IMG/VR virus record: IMGVR_UViG_3300050190_000082
Span: 64,001-128,000 of that record
DNA length: 64,000 bases
Reading direction: 5' to 3' (one strand)
Source: a virus
The stretch's first letter is position 1, and the number at the start of each line of letters is the position of its first letter. Of this stretch, positions 6,975 to 62,075 are shown piece by piece. Under the pieces are notes generated by a model that was not told the DNA's origin, did not search any database, and saw only the letters and a program-made list of their open reading frames with translations. The translations under genes and the position numbers were made by a program.

Positions 6975-7089
6975 TTATCAATCCTTCCTTAATAGGTCTA
7001 TAATTTGGAATAAGACACTCAAACTCTAAGGAAAGTTCAAGCATCTCGTTTTAAAAGTTACAGACTTCGAACCCTGCAACTCAACCAAA
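6975..7089 (-). promoter_or_regulatory. structured RNA leader L1 (3-way junction + pseudoknot at the SD)
   Basis: P1 UUUGG/CCAAA; P2 AGUUGCAG-gguucgaagu-CUGUAACU; P3 loop UUCCUUA (7027-7033) complementary to UAAGGAA (6985-6991) overlapping the SD. Confidence 0.65.
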
Positions 7090-7587
7090 AATTAATTTCA
7101 AATTTTTAAATCTACATAAAATAGAGACTTCTTTAAAAGCTCAAAACTTACCTCACTCATGCTCTCATATGCTTCCATTTACTCCAATTCCCTAGCATAC
7201 AAATAAGTTAAAATCTCCCTTTTATTTGAAGGTAACAAAACTTTTTAAGCAAAATATAGTTTTGCTAATACAATTTTTTGTTCTTAAATCCGCACAACAA
7301 AAAGGAGAGTTATATTTCAACTCTCCTTAAAACATAATTAACTTATTTTTACAATATCAATCAATCCCATTTCACAAAACTCAAATTTAGCGTATAATAA
7401 ACATAATAGTTAAGTAATATATTGAAAATCAAGAAAAATAACATTTGTATATATTATTTATTAGTAGTATAATAATTAATAAGGAGGTGAGGACTGTTAG
7501 GGATATCTTTTAGAAATATCTTTGGTAAGAAACAGGACCATCCATTCGCTAAAAAAATATCCAAAAGAAGAGAGGGGAAAACACTAC

Positions 7588-8997
7588 ATGAAAAAAACTA
7601 AAAAGTTCTTAGCTAGTTTGGTAATTATGGGTATGGTTGCTACCATGGTCCCACTAAATGTTTTGGCAGCAACAGGGGTAACAACGGATCGAATTGGTGG
7701 TGCAGACAGATATCAAACTGCTAATGCCGTAGCAGATAAGATTGTATCTCCGACTACTGCAATCCTTGCCCCAGCTGAAAATGATAACTTGGTAGATGCC
7801 TTAGCGGCAGCACCATTAGCTGGAACCAAATCTCCTATTTTACTGACGCAAAGCAACACCCTGACTGCTGCTACAAAAACTGAACTGGCTAAACTAGGCG
7901 TTACAAAGGTCTATGTAGTTGGAGCAATCAGCAAAACAGTCGTCGACCAAGTAAGTGCAATGGGTATTACAGTTACCACTCTCCAAGGCGCTGATCGTAT
8001 TGCAACTGCGGCTATGATTTCTTCTAAACTCACCACCGCACCAGCAGGTTCATTCGTAGTTGGCTATAATGCTTTGGCAGATGCATTGTCGGTAGCTTCT
8101 TATGCAGCAGCTAATAACTATTCTATCTTAGTAGCAAATCCTGATGGAAGCCTTCCGGTATCCGAGGCCACTTATAAAGGTGCTAAAGTTTACACCGTCG
8201 GTGGACCTAAACTCGTAGCAGACATCGCTGGTGCTACTCGTCTCGCGGATACAGATCGATTCGCTACGAATAAAGTCGTGCTCGAAACTCTTGGTTACAC
8301 CTATAACAAAGTCTATGTTGCTAACGGAACACAGGCACACTTAGTTGACTCACTCGTTGCTTCATCCTTAGCTGCCTTAGATGGCGCTCCAATCGTTCTG
8401 ACAGACACATTTACTGGCGGGGATGCTACTGCAGCTGCCATCGGTACTAAACTTGCTGACAATGCGGTAGTGGTTGCACTTGGTGGAGATCAGGTTGTTA
8501 CGAATGAAACTTTGGCGAAGGTTACCAAAATAGATTATACTTACACTGTAACAGACGGTAAAGCCCAAATTACGAGGTACACAGGGGATGGTGGAGCTAT
8601 TGCAATACCAAGTACATTAGGTGGAGTTCCTGTCATAAGCATCGGCTACGACGCTTTTTTCTATTGCACAGGCTTAACTAGTATTAGTATTCCGCAAGGA
8701 GTCACAAGTATCGGTGACGGGGCTTTTGCCTTTTGCACAGGCTTAATTAGCATTACCATTCCTAAAGGAGTCACAAATGTATCCAGCTATGTCTTTTACT
8801 ATTGTCCAAACTTAACTACTATTAACTTTAACTCGGCAACAACAACTATATATGATGATTCATACACAATTCCAGACACAACAAAGATTATAGGATATGC
8901 CTCATCTACCGCAAAAGATTACGCTACAAAATATGGAAACACGTTCGAAGTTATACCAGAAACGTTAGCTGCTTTAATGGACAGGATTCATACTTAA
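7588..8997 (+). CDS. secreted cell-wall protein: signal peptide, three CWB2 (cell wall binding 2) repeats, C-terminal BspA-type LRR; host-derived moron
   Basis: GADRYQT...DALAAAPLA...PILLT repeats; IPQGVTSIGDGAFAFCTGL LRR units; RBS GAGGGG before ATG 7588 (track start 7522); visibly higher GC than its flanks. Confidence 0.85.
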   Translation: MKKTKKFLASLVIMGMVATMVPLNVLAATGVTTDRIGGADRYQTANAVADKIVSPTTAILAPAENDNLVDALAAAPLAGTKSPILLTQSNTLTAATKTELAKLGVTKVYVVGAISKTVVDQVSAMGITVTTLQGADRIATAAMISSKLTTAPAGSFVVGYNALADALSVASYAAANNYSILVANPDGSLPVSEATYKGAKVYTVGGPKLVADIAGATRLADTDRFATNKVVLETLGYTYNKVYVANGTQAHLVDSLVASSLAALDGAPIVLTDTFTGGDATAAAIGTKLADNAVVVALGGDQVVTNETLAKVTKIDYTYTVTDGKAQITRYTGDGGAIAIPSTLGGVPVISIGYDAFFYCTGLTSISIPQGVTSIGDGAFAFCTGLISITIPKGVTNVSSYVFYYCPNLTTINFNSATTTIYDDSYTIPDTTKIIGYASSTAKDYATKYGNTFEVIPETLAALMDRIHT

Positions 8998-9065
8998 ATA
9001 TACACAACAAAAAAGAAGAGTAAAACTCTCCTTTAAGCTAAACTATAATTTCCACATATTCCCTA

Positions 9066-9210
9066 TTGTAAATAAACCATAACCATGTTACATTTACCTT
9101 GCTTGATACCAAAGCAACCAAGTGTAGAATATTGTTCTACATTCTTCAAAGGAGATTATGCCTTCTTTGAAGAGGGAAGAAGATCATATTAATTTATGGT
9201 CTTCTTTTTA
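9066..9210 (+). ncRNA. candidate small RNA (~9101-9210) with its own sigma-A promoter and terminator
   Basis: TTGTAA-17-TACATT with TG extension (9066-9094); three hairpins, then terminator AGAAGATCATA/TATGGTCTTCT-TTTT; no credible ORF. Confidence 0.5.
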
Positions 9211-9258
9211 ATTATCTATTTTGAATCTAGGTTTTGATACGTTGGTTCATTTTCGATC

Positions 9259-9888: not shown

Positions 9889-10125
9889 AATTTAAACATC
9901 TCCTTCAAAATTGATATAAAAATAAGAGAGTATTATAACTCTCAAAATATAAATTCAAATTCTGGACATAAATATTGAGCTTGTCTCAATATTTTGGACA
10001 GAGATTATGACGCTTCATAATCTAACCTGCTTCGTCGTCCCTATATCCCTAATTCATACACTTATCTATAAGCAAAAGGGGATTCTCTGTATTAAAGTAT
10101 AGAGAAGTCCCCTTAACAATATATA

Positions 10126-12087
10126 TTAGAAATTTATGTATCTTCTATTAGATTCTATATCCATATTATTATCTTTTAAATATTGCAACATAATTGGTTT
10201 AATCATTGACTTCTTAAATGTATCAGATTTAATATCCAATAATTCTTTTACTTTTGCTTTACTTAATCCTTGTTCAAGTAGTGTTTCATTCAAAATCAAT
10301 CCATCTCTATAATCTTCATCTGCTAAAACTTTATCAAAGAACTCAATCAAAGTTTCAACTACATCTTTTTTATTCTCTACAACCTTACCACTTTTCTTTG
10401 ATTGATATTTTAATCCCCAATTATATGTAATTTGGATATCAGGCATAGCTTTTTCAATAAGAGCATCAACTTCTTTATCTCTGTTTATCAAATAAGCATA
10501 AGTTTCAGGACAACCACCATCTACATATCCACGAGATTTAACTCTATTTAATGTTTGTACTATTAATGAACTAATCACAGATACTTTAACTTTCTCAAAT
10601 TCCTCTTGTTTGTATTTTCTATTGCCTTTGATTGGAATAAGAGTAGTATCTAAAGAATTAAATTTATCTGCTGATAGTTCATTCTCACTTACTGAACTTG
10701 TAAAATACATTAATGGATATATTGCATCTGGTAAAAGTTGAATCCCTAATACAAATATTAAATCAAACTCACTCCATTTATTACTTCCTATTGTCCTTCC
10801 ATAATGAGTAATATCAATTTGATCTATTTTCTCATATCCTTTAAATGCTTCTCTAATAATCTTATCTCTTTCTTCACCATTAGTAACTATCAATACTTTT
10901 TCAGCATCAGTTATTTTGCTTTTAATATCTTCAATAATTGTATCTAATAACCCATCCTCTAATCCTTTTCTCATTGATGCAGAAGAACCAGTTACTCCAT
11001 TAAAAATGTTTAAGTGCATATTCTTATATGATTTAATTTGTGGTAAATCTCTTACATCTGACTTGTTGTTAATCTCATATAAATAGTTAATACCTGATGT
11101 AGCGTCTAATGTTACTTTGTAGAAATAAGGATTATCCATATCAATGTACTTATATGTAATTATGGATTTATATTTTATATCGTCACTAATATTTACATAC
11201 CCACCAGTAGCTAACATTGTTCTAATTGCCAGATATGATTCTTTTGCTTGTTTATCTTTGCAAGTGAAGAATAATTCATCTAGTCCTTCAGGCACTTCAA
11301 TATTTTCAAAGGTAGAAAAGAATACGCTATTTTTCTTTATGTCATATGGCTTTAAAAATTCCTTCTTAATCTTAGTTACAAAACCATTAAATCTATCATA
11401 AATATCTTCATTACCCATATTCATAATTGCATTTTCCATTGCACAGATTGAGTTCATGCTGACTGTCATAAATTGAACATTGTTTATGGCTTCATCCACA
11501 ATCAATCTCTCCCTATAAAAAGTATTATATTTACCATGTTTAGTGTTAATTCTTTTATCAGACCACTCACATAATTTATTTACTTCATCTTTGTCAATCA
11601 ATTGTAGAAATCCATTATGAGTTAATACAATCACTGGATATTCTTTTAATTCTTCATTATCAATGGAGTTTCTTTTTCTATCATTAAGTTTATCAAATCC
11701 ACTGTGATAAGCATAAGCTAATTCTATTCCTGCTTTTCTATTAATTGATCTCACAGTTTCATCGCAATCTTCTTTTGTAAGTTTTAATATAATTGTCCCA
11801 GAATATGGTTGTAATAATTTGTTGTTTAACATGTAGGAAATACCATTATTCATTGCTGTAGATTTTCCACAACCAGTAGGAAAGTTGACTATTGCTTTCT
11901 TATCTCTGATAGGGTAAAACATAATGTAATAAAGTAATTGTTTAAGTCCTTTGTAGTATTCTCCACCACTAGGAATAATGACGTTGTAAGTTGCTAATTC
12001 TTTGATTGTTAATTCTGTTGCTTCTGCTACATGTTTCTTTTTTGTTTCAAGTTCCATCTTTTCTAGAAATTCTTTGTAATTCATCAT
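10126..12087 (-). CDS. superfamily-2 helicase-like protein (possible replication initiator)
   Basis: Walker A FPTGCGKST, Walker B LIVDEA, motif VI-like QTLNRVKSR; AAGGAG RBS favours the start at 12087 (track 12105). Confidence 0.65.
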   Translation of the reverse strand: MMNYKEFLEKMELETKKKHVAEATELTIKELATYNVIIPSGGEYYKGLKQLLYYIMFYPIRDKKAIVNFPTGCGKSTAMNNGISYMLNNKLLQPYSGTIILKLTKEDCDETVRSINRKAGIELAYAYHSGFDKLNDRKRNSIDNEELKEYPVIVLTHNGFLQLIDKDEVNKLCEWSDKRINTKHGKYNTFYRERLIVDEAINNVQFMTVSMNSICAMENAIMNMGNEDIYDRFNGFVTKIKKEFLKPYDIKKNSVFFSTFENIEVPEGLDELFFTCKDKQAKESYLAIRTMLATGGYVNISDDIKYKSIITYKYIDMDNPYFYKVTLDATSGINYLYEINNKSDVRDLPQIKSYKNMHLNIFNGVTGSSASMRKGLEDGLLDTIIEDIKSKITDAEKVLIVTNGEERDKIIREAFKGYEKIDQIDITHYGRTIGSNKWSEFDLIFVLGIQLLPDAIYPLMYFTSSVSENELSADKFNSLDTTLIPIKGNRKYKQEEFEKVKVSVISSLIVQTLNRVKSRGYVDGGCPETYAYLINRDKEVDALIEKAMPDIQITYNWGLKYQSKKSGKVVENKKDVVETLIEFFDKVLADEDYRDGLILNETLLEQGLSKAKVKELLDIKSDTFKKSMIKPIMLQYLKDNNMDIESNRRYINF

Positions 12088-12089
12088 TG

Positions 12090-12183
12090 TTAACATCTCC
12101 TTCAATATTGTCCTTAAAAATATAATAAACAGACAGGCACTAAGGATTGTGCTTTTCGGATGGCCTACCCTAGTCTGTTTATT
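12090..12183 (-). promoter_or_regulatory. structured RNA leader L2
   Basis: P1 AAUAAACAGAC/GUCUGUUUAUU; P2 GGGU-aggcc-AUCC; GAAAA linker; P3 GCAC-aauccuua-GUGC; loop pairs with UAAGGA (12111-12116) just upstream of the SD. Confidence 0.7.
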
Positions 12184-14454: not shown

Positions 14455-14562
14455 AATTTCCCCTTCCGTCATAGAAAAGCACAAATGGAAGAAGAGACCC
14501 ATGTAACGGCATAAGTCTCTAGTTTTACACTTATTAGACTTCGAACCCTAATAAGAAACCAT
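14455..14562 (-). promoter_or_regulatory. structured RNA leader L3
   Basis: P2 CUUAUUAG-gguucgaagu-CUAAUAAG (same loop as L1); P3 AGAGACU.AUG-ccguua-CAU.GGUCUCU; loop pairs with UGACGG (14466-14471) abutting the SD. Confidence 0.7.
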
Positions 14563-34642: not shown

Positions 34643-37600
34643 CTATGCTGTTGTATCTGACAACTGTATAAGGGAATTAATAAATCCTTCTGAATCAGAT
34701 ACATTCGGTAATTCAACGTGTTCTACAATTATATTTGTAATTGGGGCTTGACTTCCTTGATTTTGAACATTGATTTTAAAATCAGGTAAATTAAGTTTAG
34801 GTAAAATATTCTTTAAAAAATTATTTGGATTAAACTTACCCCAATCCATAAGATTTTTAGTAAGACTATTTTTAATTACCCCTGCTCCTTGAGGAAGTGT
34901 TACAATTTCTCCACCATTTTCATTAATTTTGTAATCACCAGTTTTAGGTACAAAGTCTGTTCCGTCTTGATAACCTACATAATTACCATCATATAATCCA
35001 GGTATGTTGCTTAAACTCCCATATCTGGCTTTTATATATTGTATTGCACTACTTGCATTATCAATAGGATTAAGAATATCACCTAAATTACTCATCTTAT
35101 ATTGATCAAAAGTGGAAGGTAACATTTGCATCAATCCAGTTGCATGTTGTCCCATAACTGATGTAGGATTTTGAATAGTTGGATTACCGCCACTTTCTCT
35201 ACTTACTAATTGTGTAAGTCCAGACAACCAATCAGTTCCAACACCCGCATTAGCCATTGCTTTTTTAAGCCAATCAGTTACATTCCCACCCATAGCATCT
35301 CCTGCTGAACCAAAAGCACCAGCCCCAGAAGCAGCCATATCTGTAAATTGACTCTGAATAAATGAATTGATATCCTGACTAGATATGCCATTTGATAATC
35401 CTTGCATTAAGAATTCACCTATTTTATGCATTACAGTTGAAGGCGAATGAATGCCAAAGGATGTATGGAATTGTGCAACAACTTTGTCAGTAAGAGTTTT
35501 TACAATGTCTGTAATGTTTTTAGTAGAATCAGTGACACCTTTTCCTAATTCATCAATCATTCCAGTACCAGAATTATAAGAATCCATTACAAATGCATTA
35601 ATACCTGTTTTTACTTTATCAATCAAGACAGTTACAGGAGTAATTAATAAAGCATTATTTGCAATGACAGAATCACCCATATTTTTATCCATACCTTTTC
35701 CATATTGAGGTGACATATCTACAAAATGTTGTAAAGAATTTGATATATCTTGTACTAATGTATTGAGTGGTTTTTGAACTAATATATCATTATTAGTGAT
35801 TGATTTACCTATATTATTGTTGAGATCATGGGCATATTTAGGAGAAGAATCAATGAATTTTTGGATATTATCATTAATATCAGACAATAAAACATCTAAT
35901 GGCCTTTTCACTAAATCATCATTTGCTGTAACTGATTGACCTACAGTATTTAATGAAGCTTTTGTATCACCATTTAATATTCTACTGGTGTCATTGGCAT
36001 TTATGACTTGTTCTCCACCTTGGAAATTAGCTTTATTACCAGCAATTATTTCTATGCCATTTTCATTGATGTTTTTGACTCCTGCTTCTGCATTATCTGT
36101 TCCAGTTGCATAACCTTTTACAGAAGCACTTGCTGCCTTTTCCCTTGCTGCTTGTTTATCTTGTTCGGTTTTTATAGAAGCATTGAGAGAGGCAATTTTA
36201 TCAGTATTTGCATTATCAGATTTGAATTTAGCAGATGCAGTTTGAGTTGTACTTACAGCATCTCTTGCAGTTTGTACTGCTGTTTGATCTGCTTCCCATT
36301 GCCATTTTCCATCCTGATAAACACGGACATTTTTCTCATTCTGAGCATTTGTCAAGTCATTTTGTTGTTTAATTAAATCATTTTGATATTGTAATTGTTG
36401 AGTTGTTCTAGTTTCAGTTTCAGTTTTTTTATTGATTGCATCAATTTGTGCTTGATATCCTGCTATAATTAAATCAGAAGCATTTTTTTGAGTTTGTGCT
36501 ATTAATGCTATAGCATCTGTGGAAGCTTTTGAAGCATCTGCTGTTATTGCTGATGTTCTAGCTTGTGCAATTGATTCTGCTGTTGCTCCTGCTTTATTTA
36601 CTGCATCAAGATTAGCATTAGCAACACTTAAAGCATCAAGAGCAGATTCTTTTTGTACTACAGTTTTAGCATCATTAACTCTTTTTGTTGCTACTGCTAC
36701 TTTTTCTTCTGCTCTTGCTACTGCATCAGCTTGTTTTTGTGCGTCAGATGCTGCTTTTTTATCGGCTGCTGCTTTTGCTTTGTCTGCCTTAGCTTGAGCT
36801 GCTGATGCTGCCTTTGCTGCCTTTGTATCTGCTGCGCTTGGAGGTTCAAAACTTCCACCAGCAGGAGCACCCTTTTCCATATCTGCAACACTCATATTAG
36901 CAATTGTTTTATACGCTTCATTTGTTAGAGTTACTGTATCTAGTTGCTTACTCGCAAGAGCTAATTGAGTTGTTGCGTCAGATATTGTGCCAGAATTACG
37001 CAGATAATTGTGTTCAGCTTGAGCTTGTTGGGCATCTGTCAAATTGCCAGAATCAATTGACGCAGCATAAGCTGAATTTTTAGCCTCAAGTGCTTTTATT
37101 TCTGCTCCAATTGCCTTAATTCTTTCTGTTGTTTGATCTACTACGTTTTGAGTTTCTATTTGCTGTGCCTTAGCAGTTGCTTTCAAAGAATTAAGTTCTA
37201 CAACTGCAAGTGCTTCTTGCGCAGTAAGATTTGCACCCAGAGCTTTAATATTTATACCAACTGCACCAGTCTTTTGATTTAAAACTTGAATGTATTGAGG
37301 ATATTTGTCAATCATATTCTGATTGACTGTCTTTTCATTCTCAGTTAGTGCAATACCTTGTGTTAATTTATCATGGACAGATTGATAACTCTTTACTAAT
37401 TGTTGTTGGGAACCAATTTCTTGGACTGTTGTTGCTGTTTTTGTAATAGTTGCTTGGACTGAAGCGTAATCAAGTGTTGTTGCTAATTTGGTCTCTGCAT
37501 CTGCTTGCTTTTGAGCATCGGCTACTCCTGCAATTTGATTTTTTAATTTATCTAATGCTTCTGTTTTAGAATTCAAATTAAATTGTTCCATAGGTAGAAG

Positions 37601-38320
37601 TGACCTTTTAGCGGAAGTATCTTGTATACTTTTAATGTCTGTTTCTAGTTGTTTGATTTGCTTTTGGGCTTCAGTATAATTAACAGCATCTTTCATTTTT
37701 TGTAATGCTGTAGTCACATCATCTATTTTTTTAGGATCTAATGTATCTTCAAAAGTTTTAACAGCAGTAGTAAAGTCTACTTGAGATTTCTTTGTGGCAT
37801 CTAATTGTTCTTGAACCTTTGCTTGCTGATTAGCATAACCAACAAGTCCTGCGGTTATTGCTACAACTGCTGAAAGGGCTAAAATAATTGGGTTAGCCAT
37901 TAAAAAATCTAATGCTACAGAAAGTGCTTCTGTAGCAGTTGCCGCAATTCCTTCCGCTAGGATAAATTCACCTAAAGACGTAATAGCTCCTGCAATCGCT
38001 TGCCCTTTAAATATTGTTAATGCAGCAACTACTAAATATATTGCAGTACCCATTCCCCCAAAAGTTGAGGTTACATGTCCGATTGTGCTTACTAAATTGG
38101 TAAGTTGGGTTACAGCCCCATTGACAGTATCAGAGGATATAAGAGACAACCAAAGCTGTTGCATTGTATTGGTTAAATCTGCCAATTTTGCTTGGGTCGA
38201 TTTACCATACTCACCAAAACGTGCCATTGCATTACCCGCACTGGATGCCTCGGTTGTTTGTTGTTGTAAAGCCATATCCATATTTTGCATGAGAGCGAGG
38301 AATTGGTCATGCTGACGGGT
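34643..38320 (-). CDS. tail tape measure protein, exon 3 (includes C-terminal SLT lytic transglycosylase domain)
   Basis: RESGGNP...ATGLMQMLPSTF...AIQYIKARYG; begins TRQHDQFLALM after the intron omega-G at 38321. Confidence 0.9.
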   Translation of the reverse strand, partial: TRQHDQFLALMQNMDMALQQQTTEASSAGNAMARFGEYGKSTQAKLADLTNTMQQLWLSLISSDTVNGAVTQLTNLVSTIGHVTSTFGGMGTAIYLVVAALTIFKGQAIAGAITSLGEFILAEGIAATATEALSVALDFLMANPIILALSAVVAITAGLVGYANQQAKVQEQLDATKKSQVDFTTAVKTFEDTLDPKKIDDVTTALQKMKDAVNYTEAQKQIKQLETDIKSIQDTSAKRSLLPMEQFNLNSKTEALDKLKNQIAGVADAQKQADAETKLATTLDYASVQATITKTATTVQEIGSQQQLVKSYQSVHDKLTQGIALTENEKTVNQNMIDKYPQYIQVLNQKTGAVGINIKALGANLTAQEALAVVELNSLKATAKAQQIETQNVVDQTTERIKAIGAEIKALEAKNSAYAASIDSGNLTDAQQAQAEHNYLRNSGTISDATTQLALASKQLDTVTLTNEAYKTIANMSVADMEKGAPAGGSFEPPSAADTKAAKAASAAQAKADKAKAAADKKAASDAQKQADAVARAEEKVAVATKRVNDAKTVVQKESALDALSVANANLDAVNKAGATAESIAQARTSAITADASKASTDAIALIAQTQKNASDLIIAGYQAQIDAINKKTETETRTTQQLQYQNDLIKQQNDLTNAQNEKNVRVYQDGKWQWEADQTAVQTARDAVSTTQTASAKFKSDNANTDKIASLNASIKTEQDKQAAREKAASASVKGYATGTDNAEAGVKNINENGIEIIAGNKANFQGGEQVINANDTSRILNGDTKASLNTVGQSVTANDDLVKRPLDVLLSDINDNIQKFIDSSPKYAHDLNNNIGKSITNNDILVQKPLNTLVQDISNSLQHFVDMSPQYGKGMDKNMGDSVIANNALLITPVTVLIDKVKTGINAFVMDSYNSGTGMIDELGKGVTDSTKNITDIVKTLTDKVVAQFHTSFGIHSPSTVMHKIGEFLMQGLSNGISSQDINSFIQSQFTDMAASGAGAFGSAGDAMGGNVTDWLKKAMANAGVGTDWLSGLTQLVSRESGGNPTIQNPTSVMGQHATGLMQMLPSTFDQYKMSNLGDILNPIDNASSAIQYIKARYGSLSNIPGLYDGNYVGYQDGTDFVPKTGDYKINENGGEIVTLPQGAGVIKNSLTKNLMDWGKFNPNNFLKNILPKLNLPDFKINVQNQGSQAPITNIIVEHVELPNVSDSEGFINSLIQLSDTTA

Positions 38321-38699
38321 CATTCTGTTACTTTCACCTAAAAAGGCTACTGACTATTCAATTAAGAATAGCGGAAATGGTTCTTCTTAATTAAAATAAA
38401 ATTTATTTTAATAGAGTGTCTTTACACTCGACCATTTCTCTCTATAATTTCTATAGATGTTCAGACTATATCTTATGGATTATTTGTTAAGTTAAACAAA
38501 TAATATCCATCTCTCCACTTAGTCGTTGAACCTTCAACTTATTTCTAAGTTGCTTGGATGCTGATTTCCCAATCTAGTTAATTTTCAAACATTCACGCTT
38601 GTTGTCACCAACTACGTTGTAGTTTAACTAGCTCTAAGGGATTCCCAGCAATTCGAAGAGTTCTATATATGTATTACTACATACTCAGGCACACATTTT
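38321..38699 (-). ncRNA. group I self-splicing intron B (379 nt, no ORF) in the tape measure gene
   Basis: P AAUUGCUGGGAA (38642-53), Q AAUCAGCAUCC (38556-66), R UUCAACGACUA (38520-30), S AAGAUAUAGUC (38464-74); P1 CAGGU^...GCCUG with U.G wobble; terminal G; splicing gives AVAG|TRQ in frame. Confidence 0.92.
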
Positions 38700-38925
38700 A
38701 CCTGCTACCGCCGTTGCAATTCCTGCTTGCTGAACTTGATTATAATCATTCCAATGTGAACTTATTGTCTTCAAAACATCATCAAAGCTTTTAAATTCAC
38801 CACTTGAACTGCGGATTGTTACACCCACTGAATTTAATACTTTTTCAACATTATTTAATGGTTCCCCATTAAGATCATTCATTACTCCAGCTTTTACATT
38901 TTCGTATCGGCTAAATATGGAATTG
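38700..38925 (-). CDS. tail tape measure protein, exon 2
   Basis: NSIFSRYENVKAG...VEKVLNSVGVTIRSSSGEFKSFDDVL...IATAVAG, typical tape-measure core. Confidence 0.9.
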
Positions 38926-39254
38926 CAAATCTGTTACTTTCGCTTATTCATAAAAATAAGTTACTGACTATTCAAATAAATGAATAGCGGAAATGGTTCT
39001 TCTTTAGGTAATTATTTCATACCGACCATTTCTCTCTCCCTTATTATGTGGAATATAGGAGACGTTCAGACTGTCGCATATGGATAAATATATTTATTTA
39101 TCCATTTCTCTCGTTCAGTCGTTCACAGTGATATCAACTATTATTTAATGTAATTGATGTCTTCTGCCCTGTCACCCAACCACTGGGCTTCCAAGTCGAT
39201 TAGAGAGAATTTTCTTAGCAGTTTATGTATTATGCCACTAAGCCCCCAACATTA
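38926..39254 (-). ncRNA. group I self-splicing intron A (329 nt, no ORF) in the tape measure gene
   Basis: P1 UCCCU^uaauguu-GGGGG; P7 GACUG/CAGUC (39116-20/39069-73); P3 UCUCUC/GAGAGA; P8 UGGAU/AUCCA; ends ...AUUUG; splicing gives GTSL-NSIFSR in frame. Confidence 0.9.
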
Positions 39255-41443
39255 AGGGACGTACCAATACTATCCGCACTTTGACGAGTAGTTGATGAAA
39301 TTGTACCTATATATGAAATTAATTCTGGAAGACTTACAGACGCAGCCTGTGCTGAAAATGCTGTTTTCTGAATTGCTGCACTTAATTCCGCAGTTGATGT
39401 TGCAGATGTGTTGTCCACTGCGACCATTTTATCGACAAATCCCATCATATCGGTAGCTGACATTTTGTAAGAGTTCATGACGCTAATTAAACTCTGTGCA
39501 GAATCTTGTTGAGATTGACCTGCAATCTTACTCATGACTGTACTACTTTTTAATAATTCAGATGTGCTACTCGCAGAATTGCCAGCTCTTAGGAATTCCT
39601 CTGATGCAGTCATTATTTCAGACGTAGTTTCATGTAATTGTCCTGCCAATGCGGAATAATCTTGTGTCATCTGTACAATAGAATCATGAGAATTTCCTGT
39701 TATCATAGCGATATTTGTCATGTTCGCATTTATACCGTTTATAAAGGCAAATCCATCCTTAATTTGTTTAAGGGTCGAAAATAGGGCACCGCCAACGATA
39801 GACCACTGAACCATCTTAATTCCATTATTTACCAAATCTGCACCAAACCCCTGAGCAGCAACTTTAGCTTCATTTAAACCAGCTTTCATGTTGTTGGTAG
39901 CTGACGTTACTTGAGCAGATTCCGCTTTAAATGCTTCCATATCAGCAACATTAGTTAAAGAACTTGAGGATGCTGTTATTGAACTAATTTGAGACTGTAC
40001 ATCAGGTGTTTTGGCCAAACTTCCGAATTGACTCTGAATATTACGAAGTGCTAGTGCGTTACGCTCTTGAAAAAGTGCAATTGATCTTTGTAATTCAACA
40101 TTTTCTAATCTCGTATTTTCTATTTCCTTATCCGCTACAAGTTGTATACTTGTTTCTGATCTCATACTTGCCATTAAACTCTTGAGAGAATCTAATTGGC
40201 TAAAAGCTTCTGATCCAATAGAAATTGCACTTAATTTTTCTTGAAGTAAAACCATTTGATCTTCAGTTAACTTAACAGAAGAAGCTCCACCTCTAATCTC
40301 TGCAAACAGCAAGTTATATTTTTCTTGTTGTGACTGAATGGCTAAAGTTTGCTTTTCTTCCAAACTTATTGTTTGGGTTATTTGATTATCCATTTCTACA
40401 AGAGCAGAGACATTATCAAGTATTTCTTGCTTTAAGGTATCAGAGAAACTTCCACTATTTAAAGCATTTATTTTCTCTTCTAATGTAGCCAACTCTACCG
40501 ATAATTTTTCGACATTGGTAATATCGTCTAATTTTACTATTTGTTTCACTTGAAATAAATTTAACTTTTCTTCTAAACTTAATGTTTTATCTATTTGAGT
40601 ATCCATATCTTGAAGAGAGGATATATCATTGAGTATTTCTTGTTTAAAAGAATTTGTAAAATTATTTCCATTTAAACTATTTATTTTTTCTTTAAGTGTA
40701 GTTATCTCAACAGATAACTTTTCTGCATTCACAATATCATCTACATTAAATATCTGCTTTTGTTGAAATGCTCCTATATTATCTAACTCTTTTACAGTAG
40801 CTATTTCTTGTTTGTAGGCATTGATTACCTCATCAACTGCTAGTTTAGCTTCTTGTTGATCTATTGTAGAAGAGTTAGAGTTTAATCCAGATACCAAACT
40901 TTCGGCATTTATAGCCAATGGTTTTGCGGATATTGGCATACTCCCTAAATCAGACATTGACGCTCTTAATTTTTCTTGAGTAATTACTAATTTTTCAGCT
41001 TCAATTCGATTTGCTTTATAACCATCTACTGTTTGTAATATAGTTCCTTTCCATATCTTTGTATGGTCTCCGGCTTCACTTATTACAGTATCGAAATTCT
41101 TCGTTTCCTTAACTGCCTGACCTAAACTGTTTGTAAATTGAGTAGTTTGAGTTTTTAGGTCTTCGAATACCTTTCCAGAAATATCCTTAGTAACTTTAAA
41201 TTTTTCCGTAAAACTGTCTATTCCAGTAGAATCTACATTAATTTTCATTGGACTATTTGCTTCACTGGTTAAAGTTTGTATCTTTGATGTGATAGCATTT
41301 AAAGCGTCACTATCTGTTTCAACTTTTAACTTGATTGGGTTACCATTAATTTCATCACGAATACTATTTATACTATTTAATATACTCTCTTTCGATTTGC
41401 TGTCTAAAATCGCTTGTATATTAATCTGAATCATATCTGACAT
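39255..41443 (-). CDS. tail tape measure protein, exon 1 (TP901-family core; ~71-aa tandem repeat)
   Basis: MTNIAMITG...EEFLRAG...DKMVAVDNTSATSTAELSAAI...STTRQSADSIGTSL; spliced exons total 6093 nt = 2030 aa + stop. Confidence 0.9.
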
Positions 41444-46049: not shown

Positions 46050-46160
46050 TTCTACCTCCGATAATTTTTACTCCCCTTAACCCTTACAATTTCTATATAA
46101 TACAGAGGGGGTGGCTGGAGTATGCCAATCAGGGTTATAACTCCTGATCTTCCCTCTGTA
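46050..46160 (-). promoter_or_regulatory. structured RNA leader L4
   Basis: P1 UACAGAGGG/CCCUCUGUA; P2 AUCAGG-aguuauaac-CCUGAU; P3 UGGC-auacucca-GCCA; loop pairs with GGAGUA (46069-46074) upstream of the SD GGAGGU. Confidence 0.7.
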
Positions 46161-46707: not shown

Positions 46708-47130
46708 TCAAATCATCTTCTTCATCAAACCATCATACTTTTTGTAAATATCCTTAACCATTTTCCTATGTAACCCAATACATCCCTTTTTAACGTCTTT
46801 CCATTCAACTGAATAATTGTAGAGATATAACGAAAGAATATCTCTACCCAAATCTAAATTTCTCTTTTGAAGTTTAGCTAAATTATCCAAATGCTCTTTT
46901 TCACTAAGCTCTACAACTTCCCAATCTAAATTATCATATTTAGATATAGCATTTAATTCTCGCAATTTCATGACTTTTAGTTCAGCATTTTCCTTTACTA
47001 GATTGCCTGAGATTGCAAATTCATCTGATATATAAGTCCATTTCCAATCTGACTTTTCTTCCATAGAACAGATTTTGATTTTTCCTTCAAATCTCCCATT
47101 AGAATCCTTAACACAATAAATCTTTTCCAT
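46708..47130 (-). CDS. hypothetical protein under a strong sigma-A promoter
   Basis: ORF track; GAGGGG RBS. Confidence 0.65.
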   Translation of the reverse strand: MEKIYCVKDSNGRFEGKIKICSMEEKSDWKWTYISDEFAISGNLVKENAELKVMKLRELNAISKYDNLDWEVVELSEKEHLDNLAKLQKRNLDLGRDILSLYLYNYSVEWKDVKKGCIGLHRKMVKDIYKKYDGLMKKMI

Positions 47131-47191
47131 TATGTATTCCCCTCTACTAGTTTATTATGAAGCTGAATGTTTTTCTCAACCTCATAATACT

Positions 47192-47226
47192 AGTATAAGG
47201 GTAAAAGTATTGAATGTCAATACTTT
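47192..47226 (-). promoter_or_regulatory. sigma-A promoter TTGACA-17-TATACT with an overlapping palindromic operator
   Basis: -35 at 47215-47220, -10 at 47192-47197; perfect inverted repeat AAAGTATTGA-N3-TCAATACTTT at 47204-47226. Confidence 0.75.
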
Positions 47227-47251
47227 AGTTAAACAATTATTTACTTTATTA

Positions 47252-50785: not shown

Positions 50786-51880
50786 TTATTCCTCTTCTTT
50801 AACTTCTTCCTCAATAACCTCTCTGTTAGTTTCAATAACTTTCATTTTCTTTAACATTCCATTCTTTTCTTCGGCAAATGTTCTCAAGTCATAGAAACTG
50901 GATGTGGTGCTAATGTCATTATGTTGTCCTATATGTTTACTAACAAATTTTAAATCCATTCCACCTGCCAAGTAATGACTTATAGCTGAAGCTTTAAATA
51001 AATGCGGATTTATTCTTCGTCCTAAAATATCAGATAAAACATTTGCACACAAATCATCAGCCCATCCTAAAGATATTTGATGATATTCTCCATTAAATTT
51101 CACTGTAAATAGATACTCATGTTCATACCCTCTTTTTTCAACCCATAAGTTTAAGTAATACAAAACTGCTACAGGCACTATATACTCGCATTGCTTTCCA
51201 TCCTCACTAGGGCCTTTCTCGCGTACTGTATTTGACATTACATATTCTTGACCTTCTTCTACTGGTTTAGATATAATCTCGGTTTTAAAACCTCTAAGAC
51301 CACCTCTTCTAGCACCAGTATTAAATGCACACGCTACCCATGCAACTGCAAGGTAATTTTTATCTTCCATAAGAGTGTCTATTAAAAGTTTATATTCTAT
51401 TTCTGATATTGCAATTTTATTATAGACATAATTCTTAGGAATTTTAATGTCTGTTTTTGTGAAGTTATGAAAAGTCTTATACTCATCTACTTCCTCTGAT
51501 AGAATTCTTTCTGCATATTCACAAATTGTACTTACAGAACTTTTCTTGAATCTTATACCTGAACTAGACATACCTCTATTAATTAAATAACTCAAATATC
51601 TATTAAAATCTCTCTTAGTAATATTAAAAAATGCCTTATCATTTAAACATGTTTTAACCCACCATGTGAACTGTTTGATTCCACTCCGATACTGATCTTT
51701 AGTTTGTTTTGATAAGAGAGGATGCATTTCTTGAAATTCTTTAATGAGTTTTAAATTCTCTTCATTGCATTCTTCAAACATCTCATTTGTTACTTCTGGC
51801 AATTTATCTGGTCTTGCTCTGAGCATATTTTTATTGATTATTGCTTTTGGGATTGAGGTAGCTTTTTCCGCGTCTGACAT
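50786..51880 (-). CDS. tyrosine recombinase (integrase family) embedded in the tail-gene region
   Basis: TGARR (R), REKG (K), INPHLFK (HxxR variant), GQH, FYD (Y). Confidence 0.85.
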   Translation of the reverse strand: MSDAEKATSIPKAIINKNMLRARPDKLPEVTNEMFEECNEENLKLIKEFQEMHPLLSKQTKDQYRSGIKQFTWWVKTCLNDKAFFNITKRDFNRYLSYLINRGMSSSGIRFKKSSVSTICEYAERILSEEVDEYKTFHNFTKTDIKIPKNYVYNKIAISEIEYKLLIDTLMEDKNYLAVAWVACAFNTGARRGGLRGFKTEIISKPVEEGQEYVMSNTVREKGPSEDGKQCEYIVPVAVLYYLNLWVEKRGYEHEYLFTVKFNGEYHQISLGWADDLCANVLSDILGRRINPHLFKASAISHYLAGGMDLKFVSKHIGQHNDISTTSSFYDLRTFAEEKNGMLKKMKVIETNREVIEEEVKEEE

Positions 51881-53550
51881 TAATTCACCATCCTTAGTTT
51901 ATTTACTATATATTTAGCTTTATCTGTTCTTATTTTTGTTGCGGTTATTTTATTGAAACCATTTTTACAATTAATCAAATCAGAGAGATATAATAATTCT
52001 TGCTCTTGAATAATAAAATTAGTGTCCAAACAATACTCATAAAAACACAACCTTGCATCAATATAAGTTCCAAAGTGCTTTTTAGTAGCTTCTGCTAAAC
52101 CAGTAATGTTCCTGTCAAAAGAAGACATCTTTTTATATTCATTATTCTTCAATATGTGATTATAAGTTTCAAGCATGTGCTTAAAACCATCAAATATATT
52201 ATTTTTATTCCATTTATTAACCTGATAAGATGTAAATTTACCGTATTTTTTAGCAAAATTATAATAAGTTCCATATCTCTTCAAAGCTTCTAGAAATAAT
52301 CTGCTTTTGCCATTTTTACTCAACACTCCTTGTGTTGGTAGTATACTTTTGTCGTAACCATATCTCATTATTTCTTGTAACAGTTCTATATCGTTAAATT
52401 TGTTAGGTGGTATTATAATTTCTTGCTCAATATGCTCACATTTTAAGTCTATAAAGTCTTTAAAAATATCCTTTAAACTAATCAAAATGTCATTGTAATG
52501 TTGTTTGTAAAACGTTTCATAATCTATACTTATCAATCTATAATTATTATCCTTATATAGTTTCTCCTTTAATTTACGTTTATTATTATAAACAATCCCT
52601 CTTTTAGTAACGTCATCATCCTTTGGAAAGCCCCATACCTCTATTTGAATAATTTCTCCACTAGATAAATGAATAGCAAAATCACTTCTATAATTTTTGT
52701 ATTTACCTTCAAATGGGTGATCTTCTCTAGTATAAAACATGTTGTTAGTTATTAAATACTGTGCTGTCATGTACTCACAAGATGATCTATTATAAAACCC
52801 CCTGTCATCCACCAAGTCATCTTTATCTTCGTAACCCATATCGAATTTAATATTTTTAATACCATCAAATTTAAATAATCGTTCATTAGAAATATGTAAT
52901 ATACTTAAAACTTCCTGCTGTTTTGGAAATCTTCCTAGTTCGATACATAATTCTTTTATATCGTGTTTCATATTATCATAATTGTCATAATAAGTATCTT
53001 CTCTTTCAAACCTTAGTAGTTTTGTATAGTCGTATCCTAATTCAATGCATAAATCCTTAATATTCTCACCATAATCTTGCATGACAGTATGTAGTATAGA
53101 GCCTTCTTTATTATTTTGAATACCATGAATAGTTTCATATTTATCTATATATATTTTCAGTTCTTTCAATCTATTCTCTTTGAATGTCCAATATCCTTTA
53201 TCATTTCTTGTTAAAACATTATTGTTAAATTTATATTCTATTATTTCTCTTTTTTTTAATTGGACACAGTTAATACAACAATATTTTTTAATAATATCAT
53301 TTACTGTTAAACTTTTAAAATAATCTTTATAAGTTATTTGTTTTTCTCCACCGCAATAATCACACTTTACTTCTACTAAATTTTTAGATGATGGTGTTAA
53401 GTGTTCCACTTTTATTAGTATTCTCGATCCTCTTTTATATGTCATTTTCTTCGTATATTTATTATAGAACCTTGGCTTATATCCTAACTCTTCTAATCTG
53501 TTAATATTCTCTGGGTTAATACCCATTTCTACCTCTGTACTAATTAACAT
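51880..53550 (-). CDS. free-standing zinc-ribbon + PD-(D/E)xK nuclease-like protein
   Basis: VEVKCDYCG...CCINC; RSSCE...RSDFAI...IQIEVWG...Y..KRKLKEKLY; stop overlaps the recombinase ATG (TAATG). Confidence 0.7.
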   Translation of the reverse strand: MLISTEVEMGINPENINRLEELGYKPRFYNKYTKKMTYKRGSRILIKVEHLTPSSKNLVEVKCDYCGGEKQITYKDYFKSLTVNDIIKKYCCINCVQLKKREIIEYKFNNNVLTRNDKGYWTFKENRLKELKIYIDKYETIHGIQNNKEGSILHTVMQDYGENIKDLCIELGYDYTKLLRFEREDTYYDNYDNMKHDIKELCIELGRFPKQQEVLSILHISNERLFKFDGIKNIKFDMGYEDKDDLVDDRGFYNRSSCEYMTAQYLITNNMFYTREDHPFEGKYKNYRSDFAIHLSSGEIIQIEVWGFPKDDDVTKRGIVYNNKRKLKEKLYKDNNYRLISIDYETFYKQHYNDILISLKDIFKDFIDLKCEHIEQEIIIPPNKFNDIELLQEIMRYGYDKSILPTQGVLSKNGKSRLFLEALKRYGTYYNFAKKYGKFTSYQVNKWNKNNIFDGFKHMLETYNHILKNNEYKKMSSFDRNITGLAEATKKHFGTYIDARLCFYEYCLDTNFIIQEQELLYLSDLINCKNGFNKITATKIRTDKAKYIVNKLRMVN

Positions 53551-53554
53551 TTAC

Positions 53555-53640
53555 AAACATCTCCTTTAATATTGTCCTTAAAAAGTAAAGCAGGAAGGCG
53601 TTAAGGAAAACGCTTTTCGTGTAGCTATTCACTATCCTGC
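53555..53640 (-). promoter_or_regulatory. structured RNA leader L5
   Basis: P1 GCAGGA/UCCUGC; P2 GUG-aauagcua-CAC; GAAAA linker; P3 GCG-uuuuccuuaa-CGC; pseudoknot with UAAGGA (53575-53580); 3' part nearly identical to L2. Confidence 0.72.
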
Positions 53641-53715
53641 AATTGTGCTAATTTATTGCACAACAAAAAAGACACTCTAATGAATGTCTCAAGTTCTAAA
53701 ATAAATTATTATTTA

Positions 53716-55034: not shown

Positions 55035-55103
55035 AATCTCCTTGCTCATTTTATTGTGGAAGTACGAGCAATACTTATCAGTGCGTTTATAGCAACCTAT
55101 CCT
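55035..55103 (-). promoter_or_regulatory. structured RNA leader L6
   Basis: GGA-ua-P2(GGUUGC..GCACU)-gaua-P3(AGUA-uugcucg-UACU)-UCC; loop UUGCUC pairs with GAGCAA (55042-55047) abutting the SD GGAG. Confidence 0.62.
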
Positions 55104-55188
55104 TGTATCATCTTTGTGACACAACAAAAAACACCTCTTGAGTAGAAGAGATGTATTTTAGTCAATCACAAATATTCACTTATATTCC

Positions 55189-56952: not shown

Positions 56953-56974
56953 TATTTACTTTCCCCCTTATTTT

Positions 56975-57748: not shown

Positions 57749-57772
57749 CTCTTTATGATTAAAAATGGAACA

Positions 57773-58291: not shown

Positions 58292-58306
58292 TTATTTATT
58301 CACCTC

Positions 58307-59572: not shown

Positions 59573-59579
59573 AAAAATG

Positions 59580-60059
59580 TCACCCCTTAGCACCTAAGCC
59601 CTTGAGGGCATTTTGAGTATTCAAATATGTATAGGTTATCATCTTCTGATAAACTTCTTTTCTAGCGTTTTCATATATATTAGATAGTTCTCTTAGATGC
59701 TGACCTTGACTATACATTTTAATTTCTCCATAGATAGCTTGAGCGTATAAACGTTGTTCCTTGATTTTGTCACGAAGAAAGACTAACCCCATAAGATCAA
59801 CAACTATGCCAGATTCCGCAAGTGATAAATCTTGATTAAATTGAGTACTGTCCACATCAATATCATCCATTTTATTAATTACACTTATACCATTATTATA
59901 GACATAATTATAAAATTCCTCACGGGCACGTTTTAATAATATAGTCAGATAATTAGTCAATTGTGTTTGAGAATATTTAGTTGCTAAATCTATAGAACTA
60001 ACTTCAGTCTGAAGAAAGTCATTAAACAAATCACTAAAAAGTGTAGCCAAAATCACCAC
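59580..60059 (-). CDS. head-tail connector/head completion protein
   Basis: position; FNQDLS..E..I....M...F...SQGQHL pattern. Confidence 0.5.
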   Translation of the reverse strand: MVILATLFSDLFNDFLQTEVSSIDLATKYSQTQLTNYLTILLKRAREEFYNYVYNNGISVINKMDDIDVDSTQFNQDLSLAESGIVVDLMGLVFLRDKIKEQRLYAQAIYGEIKMYSQGQHLRELSNIYENARKEVYQKMITYTYLNTQNALKGLGAKG

Positions 60060-60087
60060 CTGCCATTCAATTATTTATCCCTAATTA

Positions 60088-60738
60088 CTAACTAATCATT
60101 TCATTTGTCATTTCTTGGATGCTATTGATTGCATATTTAGAACTATAATGATTTTGAACCTCATTATATTTATTATTTCTCAGACATTCAGAATTACCTT
60201 TAATATATTCTTGTAAAAAGAACTCTAAAAATGCCCATGCAACCACAGGAGAAAACCCATTAAGTTCTTTCAGCATTTCCATATTATCAATTTTGAGCAA
60301 TTCTTGAAATTTACTTTTATCTGCACCATGCTCTTTAAATGAATAGTCGATATTAAAATATTCCCTAACTTCTTTATCTAAGATAACTATTTCAAAAGTA
60401 TCAAACCATTCTTTAAAGGCATAATACATTTCATCAAGAATTTCAAATTTAATTCTTCGTTCATCAAATAATTTATTAAATTTAATGTTAACTCGTCCAC
60501 GAATAAAGGATGCACTACCAGGAGCCATATGCATAATTCCAACCATTTTATCAGGTTTAATTGAATTAACTGTAATTTCTTGTTGTGCTTCTTTTTCACT
60601 TAATTGTTTTTCAAGTTCATCAATTTTTAGTTGACTTGATTTAGATGCTTCTGCAATTGCTTTAGTTACAGCTTCTTTTATCAAGGCTTGAATATCAACT
60701 TCTGGAGTCTCTTTTACAGTTGTCTTTTTTACTACCAT
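60088..60738 (-). CDS. hypothetical head-region protein
   Basis: ORF track; AAGGAG RBS. Confidence 0.6.
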   Translation of the reverse strand: MVVKKTTVKETPEVDIQALIKEAVTKAIAEASKSSQLKIDELEKQLSEKEAQQEITVNSIKPDKMVGIMHMAPGSASFIRGRVNIKFNKLFDERRIKFEILDEMYYAFKEWFDTFEIVILDKEVREYFNIDYSFKEHGADKSKFQELLKIDNMEMLKELNGFSPVVAWAFLEFFLQEYIKGNSECLRNNKYNEVQNHYSSKYAINSIQEMTNEMIS

Positions 60739-60768
60739 TAATTTTTAATTCTCCTTATTAAAGAAATT

Positions 60769-61968
60769 TTATATTGCTAATTTATTATTTAAAATTAGAT
60801 TATCATATACACCATTTTTATAGTTTTCTTGAAATTCATAAAACTGTTCAGGAGTATTACCACCACGACCTTGTACTGAATGAAATAAGATATGTAATTC
60901 TTCAGATAAACATACACCCAACCCATATCTATAATGTAATTCTAAACACTTATCTTTTATAAGTTGTAAATCTTCAACATTATATTCGCTTAGCGTACTA
61001 TGTACTGGTAAATTCAACTCACTTAAAGTTTCTTTAACTATAAGTTCAAATCCTTTTAAATGATGAACAACATCGAATTTTCCACCTGTCAGGATACACT
61101 TATAGTTGCAATTTGCTATTGAATCTTTATTCCATTGTGTAATTATTTTCCGCAACCAATGGTTTAATGCTGTTATTCCACCTTTCCATTGATATGCGTT
61201 TTTCCCTGATTTACTTTCCAATCCACACTCTGGGCATCCACGATCTCTGGTGAATGAATTCGGGGAAATTTTATAATCTGGATGTTTGTTATTTTCTTTT
61301 TGACACTTCATTAATATATTTACGTTAGGTGTTCCATAGCTAATTTGCCAAGGATCAACAATATTATTTTTATGCCAATATTTGTCTAAGAAACTTTCAC
61401 CTAGATTATCTATGCCATATTGAGCAAATGAATTACATTTACTGCAAACCATACAACCCATTGTTTTACTACTGGTTATAGAATTAATTTTAATTAATTC
61501 ACTTTCATGTAATCCTTTTGGACATTTGAAGTAATATTTTTTACCACTACCATAGGGAATATCAGAAGGTTTACATTTGTTTACTTCATAATCCCATCTA
61601 TCTAATATCTCTTTTGCATAGCTTACATCAAATAATTCATAGCACTTTTCTTCAAAAGATATCCATTTCTCATTGTTATTTTTAGAGCAAAGATTACAAT
61701 AATAATTTCCGTCTTCTTTTACACAGCTTTGATAATTTTCATATATTATAGATAATTCTGCGTTACAGGCATCACATTTAACTTTTACATAAACGTGACT
61801 ACTTTCTGTTAAATCTTTAGGTTTTACTATAATTTTTGTTCCGTTTGGGATAGATATTCTATTCCATTTATCTTTTCTCTTTGGTATTGTAATTCCTAAA
61901 TCTTCATAATGTTTAACATTTCTCGGATTTATCGAAACTTCAATATCTTGATCAATAATTAATCCCAT
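60769..61968 (-). CDS. free-standing zinc-ribbon + HNH endonuclease inserted downstream of the major capsid gene
   Basis: VKVKCDAC N-terminus (shared with 51880..53550); GCPEC; WKGGIT...CILTG....VHHL...GVCL.EELHILFH..G.G.NT; start 61968 after GAGGTG (track 62001). Confidence 0.75.
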   Translation of the reverse strand: MGLIIDQDIEVSINPRNVKHYEDLGITIPKRKDKWNRISIPNGTKIIVKPKDLTESSHVYVKVKCDACNAELSIIYENYQSCVKEDGNYYCNLCSKNNNEKWISFEEKCYELFDVSYAKEILDRWDYEVNKCKPSDIPYGSGKKYYFKCPKGLHESELIKINSITSSKTMGCMVCSKCNSFAQYGIDNLGESFLDKYWHKNNIVDPWQISYGTPNVNILMKCQKENNKHPDYKISPNSFTRDRGCPECGLESKSGKNAYQWKGGITALNHWLRKIITQWNKDSIANCNYKCILTGGKFDVVHHLKGFELIVKETLSELNLPVHSTLSEYNVEDLQLIKDKCLELHYRYGLGVCLSEELHILFHSVQGRGGNTPEQFYEFQENYKNGVYDNLILNNKLAI

Positions 61969-61969
61969 A

Positions 61970-62075
61970 TTACACCTCACTTTATGTAATTGACTTTTCA
62001 CTTTTTATAAAATAAGGAAAGGAGCAGTAGTGAATCTGCTCCAATAAGAATCATGACTTCTTATTTTATCCTTAT
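61970..62075 (-). promoter_or_regulatory. structured RNA leader L7
   Basis: P1 AUAAGGA/UCCUUAU; P2 AUAAGAA-gucauga-UUCUUAU; P3 GGAGCAG-auucacua-CUGCUCC; loop pairs with AGUGAA (61997-62002) or with AGUGAG at the SD. Confidence 0.72.

Follow-up and report, generated by a model that had tools for sequence, protein, structure and literature searches.

Why would the tip of an RNA arm keep its self-complementarity while its sequence keeps changing? This question is raised by a 64,000-nt stretch of viral DNA (positions 64,001 to 128,000 of the IMG/VR record IMGVR_UViG_3300050190_000082), which we will call the window. The source record is a 153.8-kb low-G+C virus, and nearly all of the genes in the window are on its minus strand. 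By reading and folding the regions upstream of large minus-strand open reading frames (ORFs), we recovered seven leader RNAs in total, L1 to L7, with arms P1, P2, and P3 (Table 1). Six of these (L1–L5 and L7) are well supported and have a palindrome at the tip of P2, on the minus strand; L6 is a weak candidate. The sequence comparisons described below indicate that the P2 tip is under selection for self-complementarity, with its sequence free to change. We think it somewhat probable that two leader RNAs pair loop to loop (a “kissing” interaction) via the P2 tip, with the P3 loop of the same RNA paired to the ribosome-binding site.

The original prediction, made from the letters of the window, named a palindrome for each P2 loop, and all of these are found at the P2 tips: UUCGAA (L1 and L3), GGCC (L2), GUUAUAAC (L4), UAGCUA (L5), UCAUGA (L7), and UAUA (L6). 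In L1, L3, L5, and L7 the apical self-complementary word is about 6 nt, and in L4 it is 8 nt. The palindrome is not centered on the axis of the stem: one or two unpaired purines on the 5' side displace it in every loop. L1 and L3 have a 14-nt P2 tip in common (AGGGUUCGAAGUCU) and differ in their outer stems. If L1 and L3 are counted as one loop and L6 is omitted, then four of the five distinct loops have a palindrome of 6 nt or longer, versus 0.19 expected, and four was reached in none of 20,000 shuffles of the pooled composition. None of the six P3 loops considered in the window contains a palindrome.

L2 and L5 belong to a family that is already in Rfam. Both score above the gathering cut-off (35.8 bits) of int-alpA (RF02996), a motif that was discovered by Weinberg et al. 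2017 (PMC5737381). They share with it the canonical three-way junction of P1, P2, and P3 with the joints UA, GAAAA(GC), and CU; a P3 loop that faces the ribosome site; and mobile-element genes downstream. L2 and L5 fold less distinctly than most of the other leaders when compared to shuffled sequences (see the z-scores in Table 1), and it is the Rfam covariance model that supports them instead. An Rfam scan of the window up to an E value of 10 found no further copies of int-alpA. The unmatched leaders (L1, L3, L4, L6, and L7) have P2 arms of 6–12 bp, and we consider them to be long-armed look-alikes, which receive no score from the Rfam model. In L4 and L7 the topology is three-way and the joints are different (AA/none/ACC and UAA/none/UU, respectively), and L1 and L3 have a P1 of 3–5 bp and the joint UAAAAC. 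Because L6 folds no better than its shuffles, it is only a degenerate candidate, which retains the GAUAAG linker that is typical of long-armed relatives (compared with L504, L511, and L519; three-digit numbers denote leaders or loci outside the window). Homologues of the HNH nuclease downstream of L3 are headed by canonical int-alpA RNAs at L481 (46.8 bits), L485 (38.8 bits), and L484 (38.3 bits), and many others carry long-armed leaders that are plainly related to L1/L3, L4, or L7. Upstream of HNH homologues at L512 and L506 there is a simpler leader that looks two-way: a single hairpin (GGAGG...CCUCC) inside a P1-like stem, without a P2 arm.

To compare the P2 loops of the window with those of their homologues, we ran four pattern searches for int-alpA RNAs: one covered species-representative bacterial genomes, and the other three covered viral contigs. 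All of the patterns were built on the conserved joints only, with the interior of P2 excluded, and matches were kept if they had a proper P1, P2, and P3. The collection has 165 matches, 127 distinct motifs, 79 distinct P2 hairpins, and 112 distinct P3 hairpins. MAFFT alignments of divergent leaders misaligned P2, so the arms were identified by a descriptor parser anchored on the conserved joints, with no custom covariance model. Palindromes were counted in the loop only, because counts for the whole hairpin inflate the null via words that span the boundary of stem and loop.

This is the comparison to chance that the original prediction had called for, and the homologous P2 loops are enriched for palindromes. 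A palindrome of 4 nt or more is present in 49 of the 79 distinct P2 hairpins, versus 16.4 in the null (sd 3.4, maximum 30 in 5,000 shuffles), and 20 have a palindrome of 6 nt or more, versus 2.5 (sd 1.5, maximum 9 in 5,000 shuffles). The excess persists if we collapse the hairpins to 54 distinct loops (36 with 4 nt or more, null 12.7; 15 with 6 nt or more, null 2.1), and it is present in bacterial and viral contigs taken separately. As a control, the 112 distinct P3 hairpins are depleted in palindromes (12 with 4 nt or more, null 21.0; one with 6 nt or more, null 2.9). The P2 words are diverse: they comprise ten different 6-mers, and out of 16 possible 4-mer cores they use 12. Two further loops, L149 (GGGCGGCGUCCCC) and L346 (GGCUUCGCGGGCC), are non-palindromic or 4-nt palindromic only under Watson-Crick rules and have 6 nt of self-complementarity once G-U wobble is counted (GGCGUC and UCGCGG), so the Watson-Crick-only counts are slightly conservative.

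We also obtained an independent sample by protein similarity, namely 80 loci that encode homologues of the L3 nuclease. In this AT-rich DNA, a general descriptor of three-way junctions gave too much noise and missed L3 and L4, so the loops were curated by eye from the folds. Ten of the 12 distinct P2 loops have a 6-nt palindrome, versus 0.59 expected, and the words are UUAUAA, UAAUUA, UCAUGA, UAGCUA, UUCGAA, UUGCAA, UGAUCA, and UGUACA. The viral contigs yielded no relatives of the L5 gene, and the single locus with a relative of the L7 gene has no clear leader. When the L1/L3 tip was searched for as an exact pattern, the only match (L119) fell within a coding region and is due to chance.

Could the excess be due to chance, or to a mutational bias without function that perfects hairpins into palindromes by template switching? 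AT-rich loops do raise the odds of a palindrome, and the correction of quasi-palindromes is a known mutational route. However, the observed counts were never reached by composition-matched shuffles, and correction would remove the offset between the axis of the stem and the axis of the palindrome, which is kept. Furthermore, more than 30,000 other hairpins from the same contigs (with stems of 6 bp or more) are palindromic at the base rate, which excludes a general drift of hairpin tips towards palindromes. Based on these generic hairpins, 11.8 of the 72 P2 loops of 4–10 nt should have a palindrome of 4 nt or more and 1.0 should have one of 6 nt or more; we observed 47 and 18. We consider this explanation extremely unlikely. 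Overall, the family-wide excess argues that self-complementarity is selected rather than a product of chance, as does the covariation of positions that are unable to pair inside a single hairpin.

The covariation comes from 16 distinct P2 hairpins of 13 nt, which can be aligned without gaps, and we scored the loop word in these as though it were a helix. Columns 8/11 and 9/10 pair in all 16 hairpins, with 10 and 4 double-sided changes, respectively, and the outer loop pair (columns 7/12) is complementary in nine of them. Overall, 90.6% of the pairing cells are complementary, versus 58.3% (sd 3.3) for shuffled loops and 24–44% if the partner is slid. Because columns 9 and 10 are adjacent, their covariation cannot reflect a hairpin; rather, a second copy of the word is needed. 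Words are also swapped on the same stem. For example, the stem gug/cac carries UAGCUA in L5 and L370 and UUGCAA in L014 and L125, and the stem AUUGAG/CUCAAU carries UUAUAA in L493 and UAAUUA in L501. L3 has UUCGAA and L507 has UUGCAA in leaders that are otherwise very similar, and in place of the GUUAUAAC of L4 we found GUAGCUAC in L140, L156, and L364. Together with the family-wide counts, the covariation and the swaps bear out the idea that the loop sequence changes while its self-complementarity is kept.

Within the collection, a group of gut virus contigs (L014, L041, L065, L088, and relatives) have near-identical P1, P3, and downstream sequences and differ only in the P2 hairpin, which behaves as a hypervariable cassette; the variants are GGUGAUGCAGACC, GGUUAGCUACC, GCUUGACGAAGC, and GCUUGACGGAGC. 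Two loop regimes coexist, in that some stems end in a constant tetraloop: GACG is present on about ten different P2 stems (e.g., L065, L162, L187, L481, and L484) and is reflected in the consensus loop gAcgu in Rfam, and UAGC is present on three (L152, L160, and L330).

These alignments also bear on whether the word is a purely intramolecular motif, either as an extension of P2 that is closed by a tiny loop or, in L1 and L3, as a tRNA-like T-loop that docks elsewhere in the RNA. A tetraloop can be closed by the outer letters of the word, as in the RNAfold structure of L4, and GGUUCGAAGUC of L1/L3 resembles the T arm of tRNA. Yet all 16 of the 13-nt hairpins are self-complementary in their central four letters, and adjacent letters cannot pair in cis. 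Also, among 43 loop windows of 6 nt whose outer pair is complementary, the inner four letters are palindromic in 15, versus 1 in 16 expected. As for the T-loop, its rule is a G53-C61 closing pair, and the closing pair in L1/L3 is G-U. The close relative L507 has GUUGCAAA instead of GUUCGAAG, which retains palindromy and loses the T-loop consensus, and L504, L511, and L514 carry GUUCGAAA on A-U closing pairs rather than a UUCRA core with G-C closure. Since the relatives keep the palindromy and not the consensus, the T-loop reading of L1/L3, which had been offered as an alternative, fails. We judge an intramolecular role of either kind to be very unlikely.

If the P2 word needs a second copy, then where is it? 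Within 300 nt, the 6-nt word recurs upstream in one of 23 cases and downstream in one of 23, with 1.7 expected, so there is no nearby partner in cis. Similarly, we found no complementarity of the P2 loop to the downstream part of the leader beyond a mean of 3.01 nt. As far as can be judged from these comparisons, the sole regular partner of the P2 word is the same loop in another molecule.

The loop might also pair in trans with something else, and palindromy would then be a by-product: candidates are an antisense transcript (via its identical loop), a host RNA, or a second leader within one long transcript. L1 and L3 share a word and are 7.4 kb apart on the same strand, so that they might pair with each other, and any antisense RNA would also carry the palindrome. 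But most of the phage records that we examined have just one or two copies of the leader, and co-resident copies mostly have different words (both in the window and in L014 and L125). The second copy within 300 nt is absent, and a partner of a different sequence would not need palindromy. Pairing with such a partner seems quite unlikely.

Nearest-neighbor calculations are consistent with pairing between identical loops. The words in the window, taken alone, self-pair at -4.1 to -5.9 kcal/mol, and the whole loops self-pair at -5.4 to -6.3 kcal/mol. Cross-pairing of different window loops is mostly weaker than -3 kcal/mol (for L4 with L5, it is -4.2 kcal/mol), so the words are predicted to be mutually orthogonal. 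If whole P2 hairpins open into extended duplexes, the computed gain is 8–15 kcal/mol.

The palindrome might instead act in double-stranded DNA, as a dyad site bound by a dimeric protein (with the site being an operator for the downstream protein or the target of a phage regulator), as a restriction or modification site, or as the tip of a cruciform. A contiguous palindrome of 4–8 bp resembles type II sites and some operators, and several of the P2 words are classical sites (GGCC, GATC, CTGCAG, and TCATGA). Comparative data alone cannot separate self-pairing of RNA from a palindrome in DNA. On the other hand, at least 10 different 6-mers and 12 of 16 cores are in use; the palindrome is always at the tip of a hairpin with a covarying stem; and 23 of the 280 pairs in P2 stems are G-U, which points to sense-strand RNA. 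The flanks of the word also distinguish the strands. On the 5' side there are 1–3 nt, mostly A (A, AA, AAG, or G), and on the 3' side there is at most one (none, or one A or G). In the 13-nt hairpins, the unpaired outer loop positions are purine opposite purine in seven of seven cases, which marks the sense strand. Strand-specific and asymmetric purines would be superfluous for a symmetric DNA site.

Nor does the word track the protein that is encoded downstream. In the family as a whole, the downstream genes include integrases, HNH nucleases, DUF4379/T5orf172 nucleases, DUF1376 proteins, a helicase, a Dam methylase, and many unknowns. UCAUGA, which recurs outside of L7 in L157, L208, L231, L450, L503, and L535, heads DUF1376, DUF4379, and HNH genes alike; UAGCUA also precedes unrelated proteins; and at least eight different words stand before the genes of one HNH family. 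This independence argues both against an operator for the downstream protein, which had been suggested for the palindrome, and against a code that is tied to the gene. “Cassette-specific” dimerization, another part of the original prediction, does not hold in the sense of a word that follows its gene, as the same word stands before unrelated proteins and homologous HNH genes have many words. We consider a role of the palindrome in DNA to be unlikely.

Whereas the P2 loop lacks a partner within the leader, the P3 loop seems to have one. In 100 of 124 int-alpA motifs, the P3 loop has Watson-Crick complementarity of 5 nt or more to the 45 nt downstream. The complementarity averages 5.50 nt, versus 3.76 nt for shuffled P3 loops and the much lower mean of the P2 loops given above. 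The target words vary across the family, which amounts to covariation for a pseudoknot. The pairs that we read for the seven window leaders are listed in Table 1. A P3 pseudoknot with the ribosome-binding region points to translational repression.

Taken with the proposed self-pairing of P2, this suggests the following model. The leaders are three-way-junction RNAs of the int-alpA type, located where the mRNAs of accessory and selfish genes begin, and the P3-loop pseudoknot with the gene's own ribosome-binding region would act as a brake on translation. Leaders would pair loop to loop if they have the same word and would stay apart from co-resident leaders that have another; the kissing complex may then rearrange into an extended duplex. 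More speculatively, dimerization could stabilize or alter the repressive fold, and the translation of a potentially harmful nuclease or recombinase would then depend on the level of its own transcript. A broader proposal, which we hold as doubtful, is that int-alpA-type leaders are a widespread portable module with a rewritable self-pairing “address” loop, such that each selfish mRNA would dimerize only with itself, giving an RNA-only sensor of transcript level or copy number that gates translation via the pseudoknot at the ribosome site.

Several observations weigh against kissing via the P2 tip. First, the tip is non-palindromic in about 35–40% of the int-alpA family (mostly GACG or UAGC, both recurrent tetraloops, and otherwise UCGCU or GGCA), so self-pairing is not essential to the fold or to repression. 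Second, the words of L2 and L6 are only 4 nt. Third, by nearest-neighbor energy the window words pair much more weakly than the two HIV-1 words (-7.9 and -10.9 kcal/mol). Fourth, the sampled sequences are related, so the shuffle counts are not true probabilities. Finally, the suggestion that the leader senses mRNA abundance is speculation.

A close likeness to the proposed interaction is the dimerization initiation site of HIV-1. Both have a 6-nt self-complementary apical word with unpaired purine flanks, more of them on the 5' side, and the layout of the P2 flanks resembles that of the HIV-1 loop. In both, the word differs between lineages with palindromy kept, and the kissing complex can (or, for the leaders, might) convert to an extended duplex. 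However, the HIV-1 site is a genome-packaging signal of an RNA virus and not an mRNA leader of a DNA phage, and its words are G+C-rich and stronger, whereas the leader words are many and are often A+U-rich or 4 nt only. For the P3 arm, the likeness is to homing-endonuclease genes of phages (such as I-TevI of T4), whose translation is curbed because the ribosome site is buried in a structure of the leader RNA. Those leaders likewise restrain the translation of a selfish nuclease, but they are simple hairpins that are relieved by a late promoter, rather than a conserved and portable three-way junction with an extra self-pairing arm.

Natural RNA homo-oligomers from bacteria and phages are still rare; they include OLE, ROOL, GOLLD, ARRPOF, HYER group II introns, and a cobalamin riboswitch (PMC12990946). 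Like the complex that we propose for the leaders, these are RNA-only assemblies that form via kissing loops or palindromic pairing. Among HYER ribozymes, only the members with a palindrome dimerize (PMC12990946), which parallels the palindromic and non-palindromic classes of P2. The known examples are large non-coding RNAs of 200–800 nt, while the leader is about 60–85 nt and has one predicted contact. int-alpA is not listed in this 2026 review of natural RNA assemblies (PMC12990946), and the main text of the discovery paper (PMC5737381) does not mention palindromes or kissing. Our literature search found nothing relevant on the function or dimerization of int-alpA, which is an orphan RNA family without a recorded function. 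If the leaders do dimerize, then at 60–85 nt they would be among the smallest natural RNA homo-oligomers and the first to be reported ahead of phage or bacterial protein-coding genes. They would also suggest a way in which selfish nuclease, integrase, and accessory genes are restrained, as a model that can be tested directly. The many natural loop words that do not cross-pair would be a ready set of orthogonal RNA-RNA contacts.

Table 1. Leader RNAs of the window, with their P2 hairpins and P3 pairings. Fold z-scores are relative to shuffled sequences, and bit scores are from the Rfam model RF02996.
Feature	Position	Strand	Sequence or downstream gene	Score and relatives
L1 leader	7003..7087	-	before HNH/DUF4379 nuclease ORF 5808-6968	fold z -3.99
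L1 P2 hairpin	7079-7058	-	loop GUUCGAAG, palindrome UUCGAA at 7071-7066	
L1 P3			long; tip CCUU opposite AAGG ribosome site	
L2 leader, canonical int-alpA RNA	12112..12180	-	before 659-aa helicase-like ORF 10126-12105	54.0 bits, E 2.2e-08; fold z -1.6
L2 P2 hairpin	12170-12158	-	loop AGGCC; GGCC at 12165-12162, A on each flank	
L2 P3 loop			AAUCCUUA; UCCUUA complementary to downstream UAAGGA	
L3 leader	14476..14561	-	before HNH nuclease ORF 13286-14449	fold z -3.15; relative L507
L3 P2 hairpin	14555-14530	-	loop GUUCGAAG, UUCGAA at 14545-14540	
L3 P3 loop			CCGUUA opposite UGACGG, directly ahead of ribosome site	
L4 leader, long-armed three-way junction	46102..46159	-	before 900-aa ORF 43342-46044	fold z -4.21; relatives L493, L501, L505
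L4 P2 hairpin	46149-46127	-	loop AGUUAUAAC, 8-nt palindrome GUUAUAAC at 46141-46134	
L4 P3 loop			AUACUCCA; CUCC opposite GGAG	
L5 leader, canonical int-alpA RNA	53575..53642	-	before 556-aa ORF 51880-53550, then integrase-like ORF 50786-51880	37.1 bits; fold z -2.5
L5 P2 hairpin	53632-53619	-	loop AAUAGCUA, UAGCUA at 53627-53622	
L5 P3 loop			UCCUU opposite AAGGA	
L6 candidate leader	55035..55105	-	before Ant-like antirepressor ORF 54272-55030	fold z +0.07
L6 P2 (weak)	about 55097-55080	-	loop UAUAAAC; UAUA only, 55091-55088	
L6 P3 loop			UUGCUC complementary to GAGCAA adjoining ribosome site	
L7 leader, long-armed three-way junction	62013..62074	-	before DUF4379 ORF 60769-61968	fold z -4.69
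L7 P2 hairpin	62065-62043	-	loop GUCAUGA, UCAUGA at 62056-62051	
L7 P3 loop			AUUCACUA; UCACU opposite AGUGA at ribosome site	

As to the genes in the window, L1, L3, and L7 head HNH/DUF4379 nuclease-like genes, and the 900-aa protein encoded downstream of L4 contains an endonuclease-VII-like stretch. The operon behind L5 ends in the integrase-like gene; the other leaders head nuclease, helicase, and antirepressor genes. L2 and L5 are identical in the 17-nt stretch after the junction (UUUUUAAGGACAAUAUU, at 12112-12128 and 53575-53591, minus strand). In L2 this stretch leads directly into a UUG start, and in L5 it is followed about 25 nt later by a second ribosome site and an AUG, so that there are two candidate ribosome sites that the P3 loop of L5 could cover.

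Two other RNA structures are present in the window. Upstream of ORF 46708-47130, at 47131-47230 on the minus strand, there is a long near-perfect hairpin in which CCCU pairs with AGAGGGG, the ribosome site of the gene that follows; it has no three-way junction and is a hairpin of the simple, sequestering kind. Rfam also gives two matches to group I introns on the minus strand (38440-38709 and 38943-39264), in the gap that separates the large ORFs 34643-38323 and 39230-41443, one of which is clear (69.6 bits) and one of which is weak (28.1 bits, below the cut-off).

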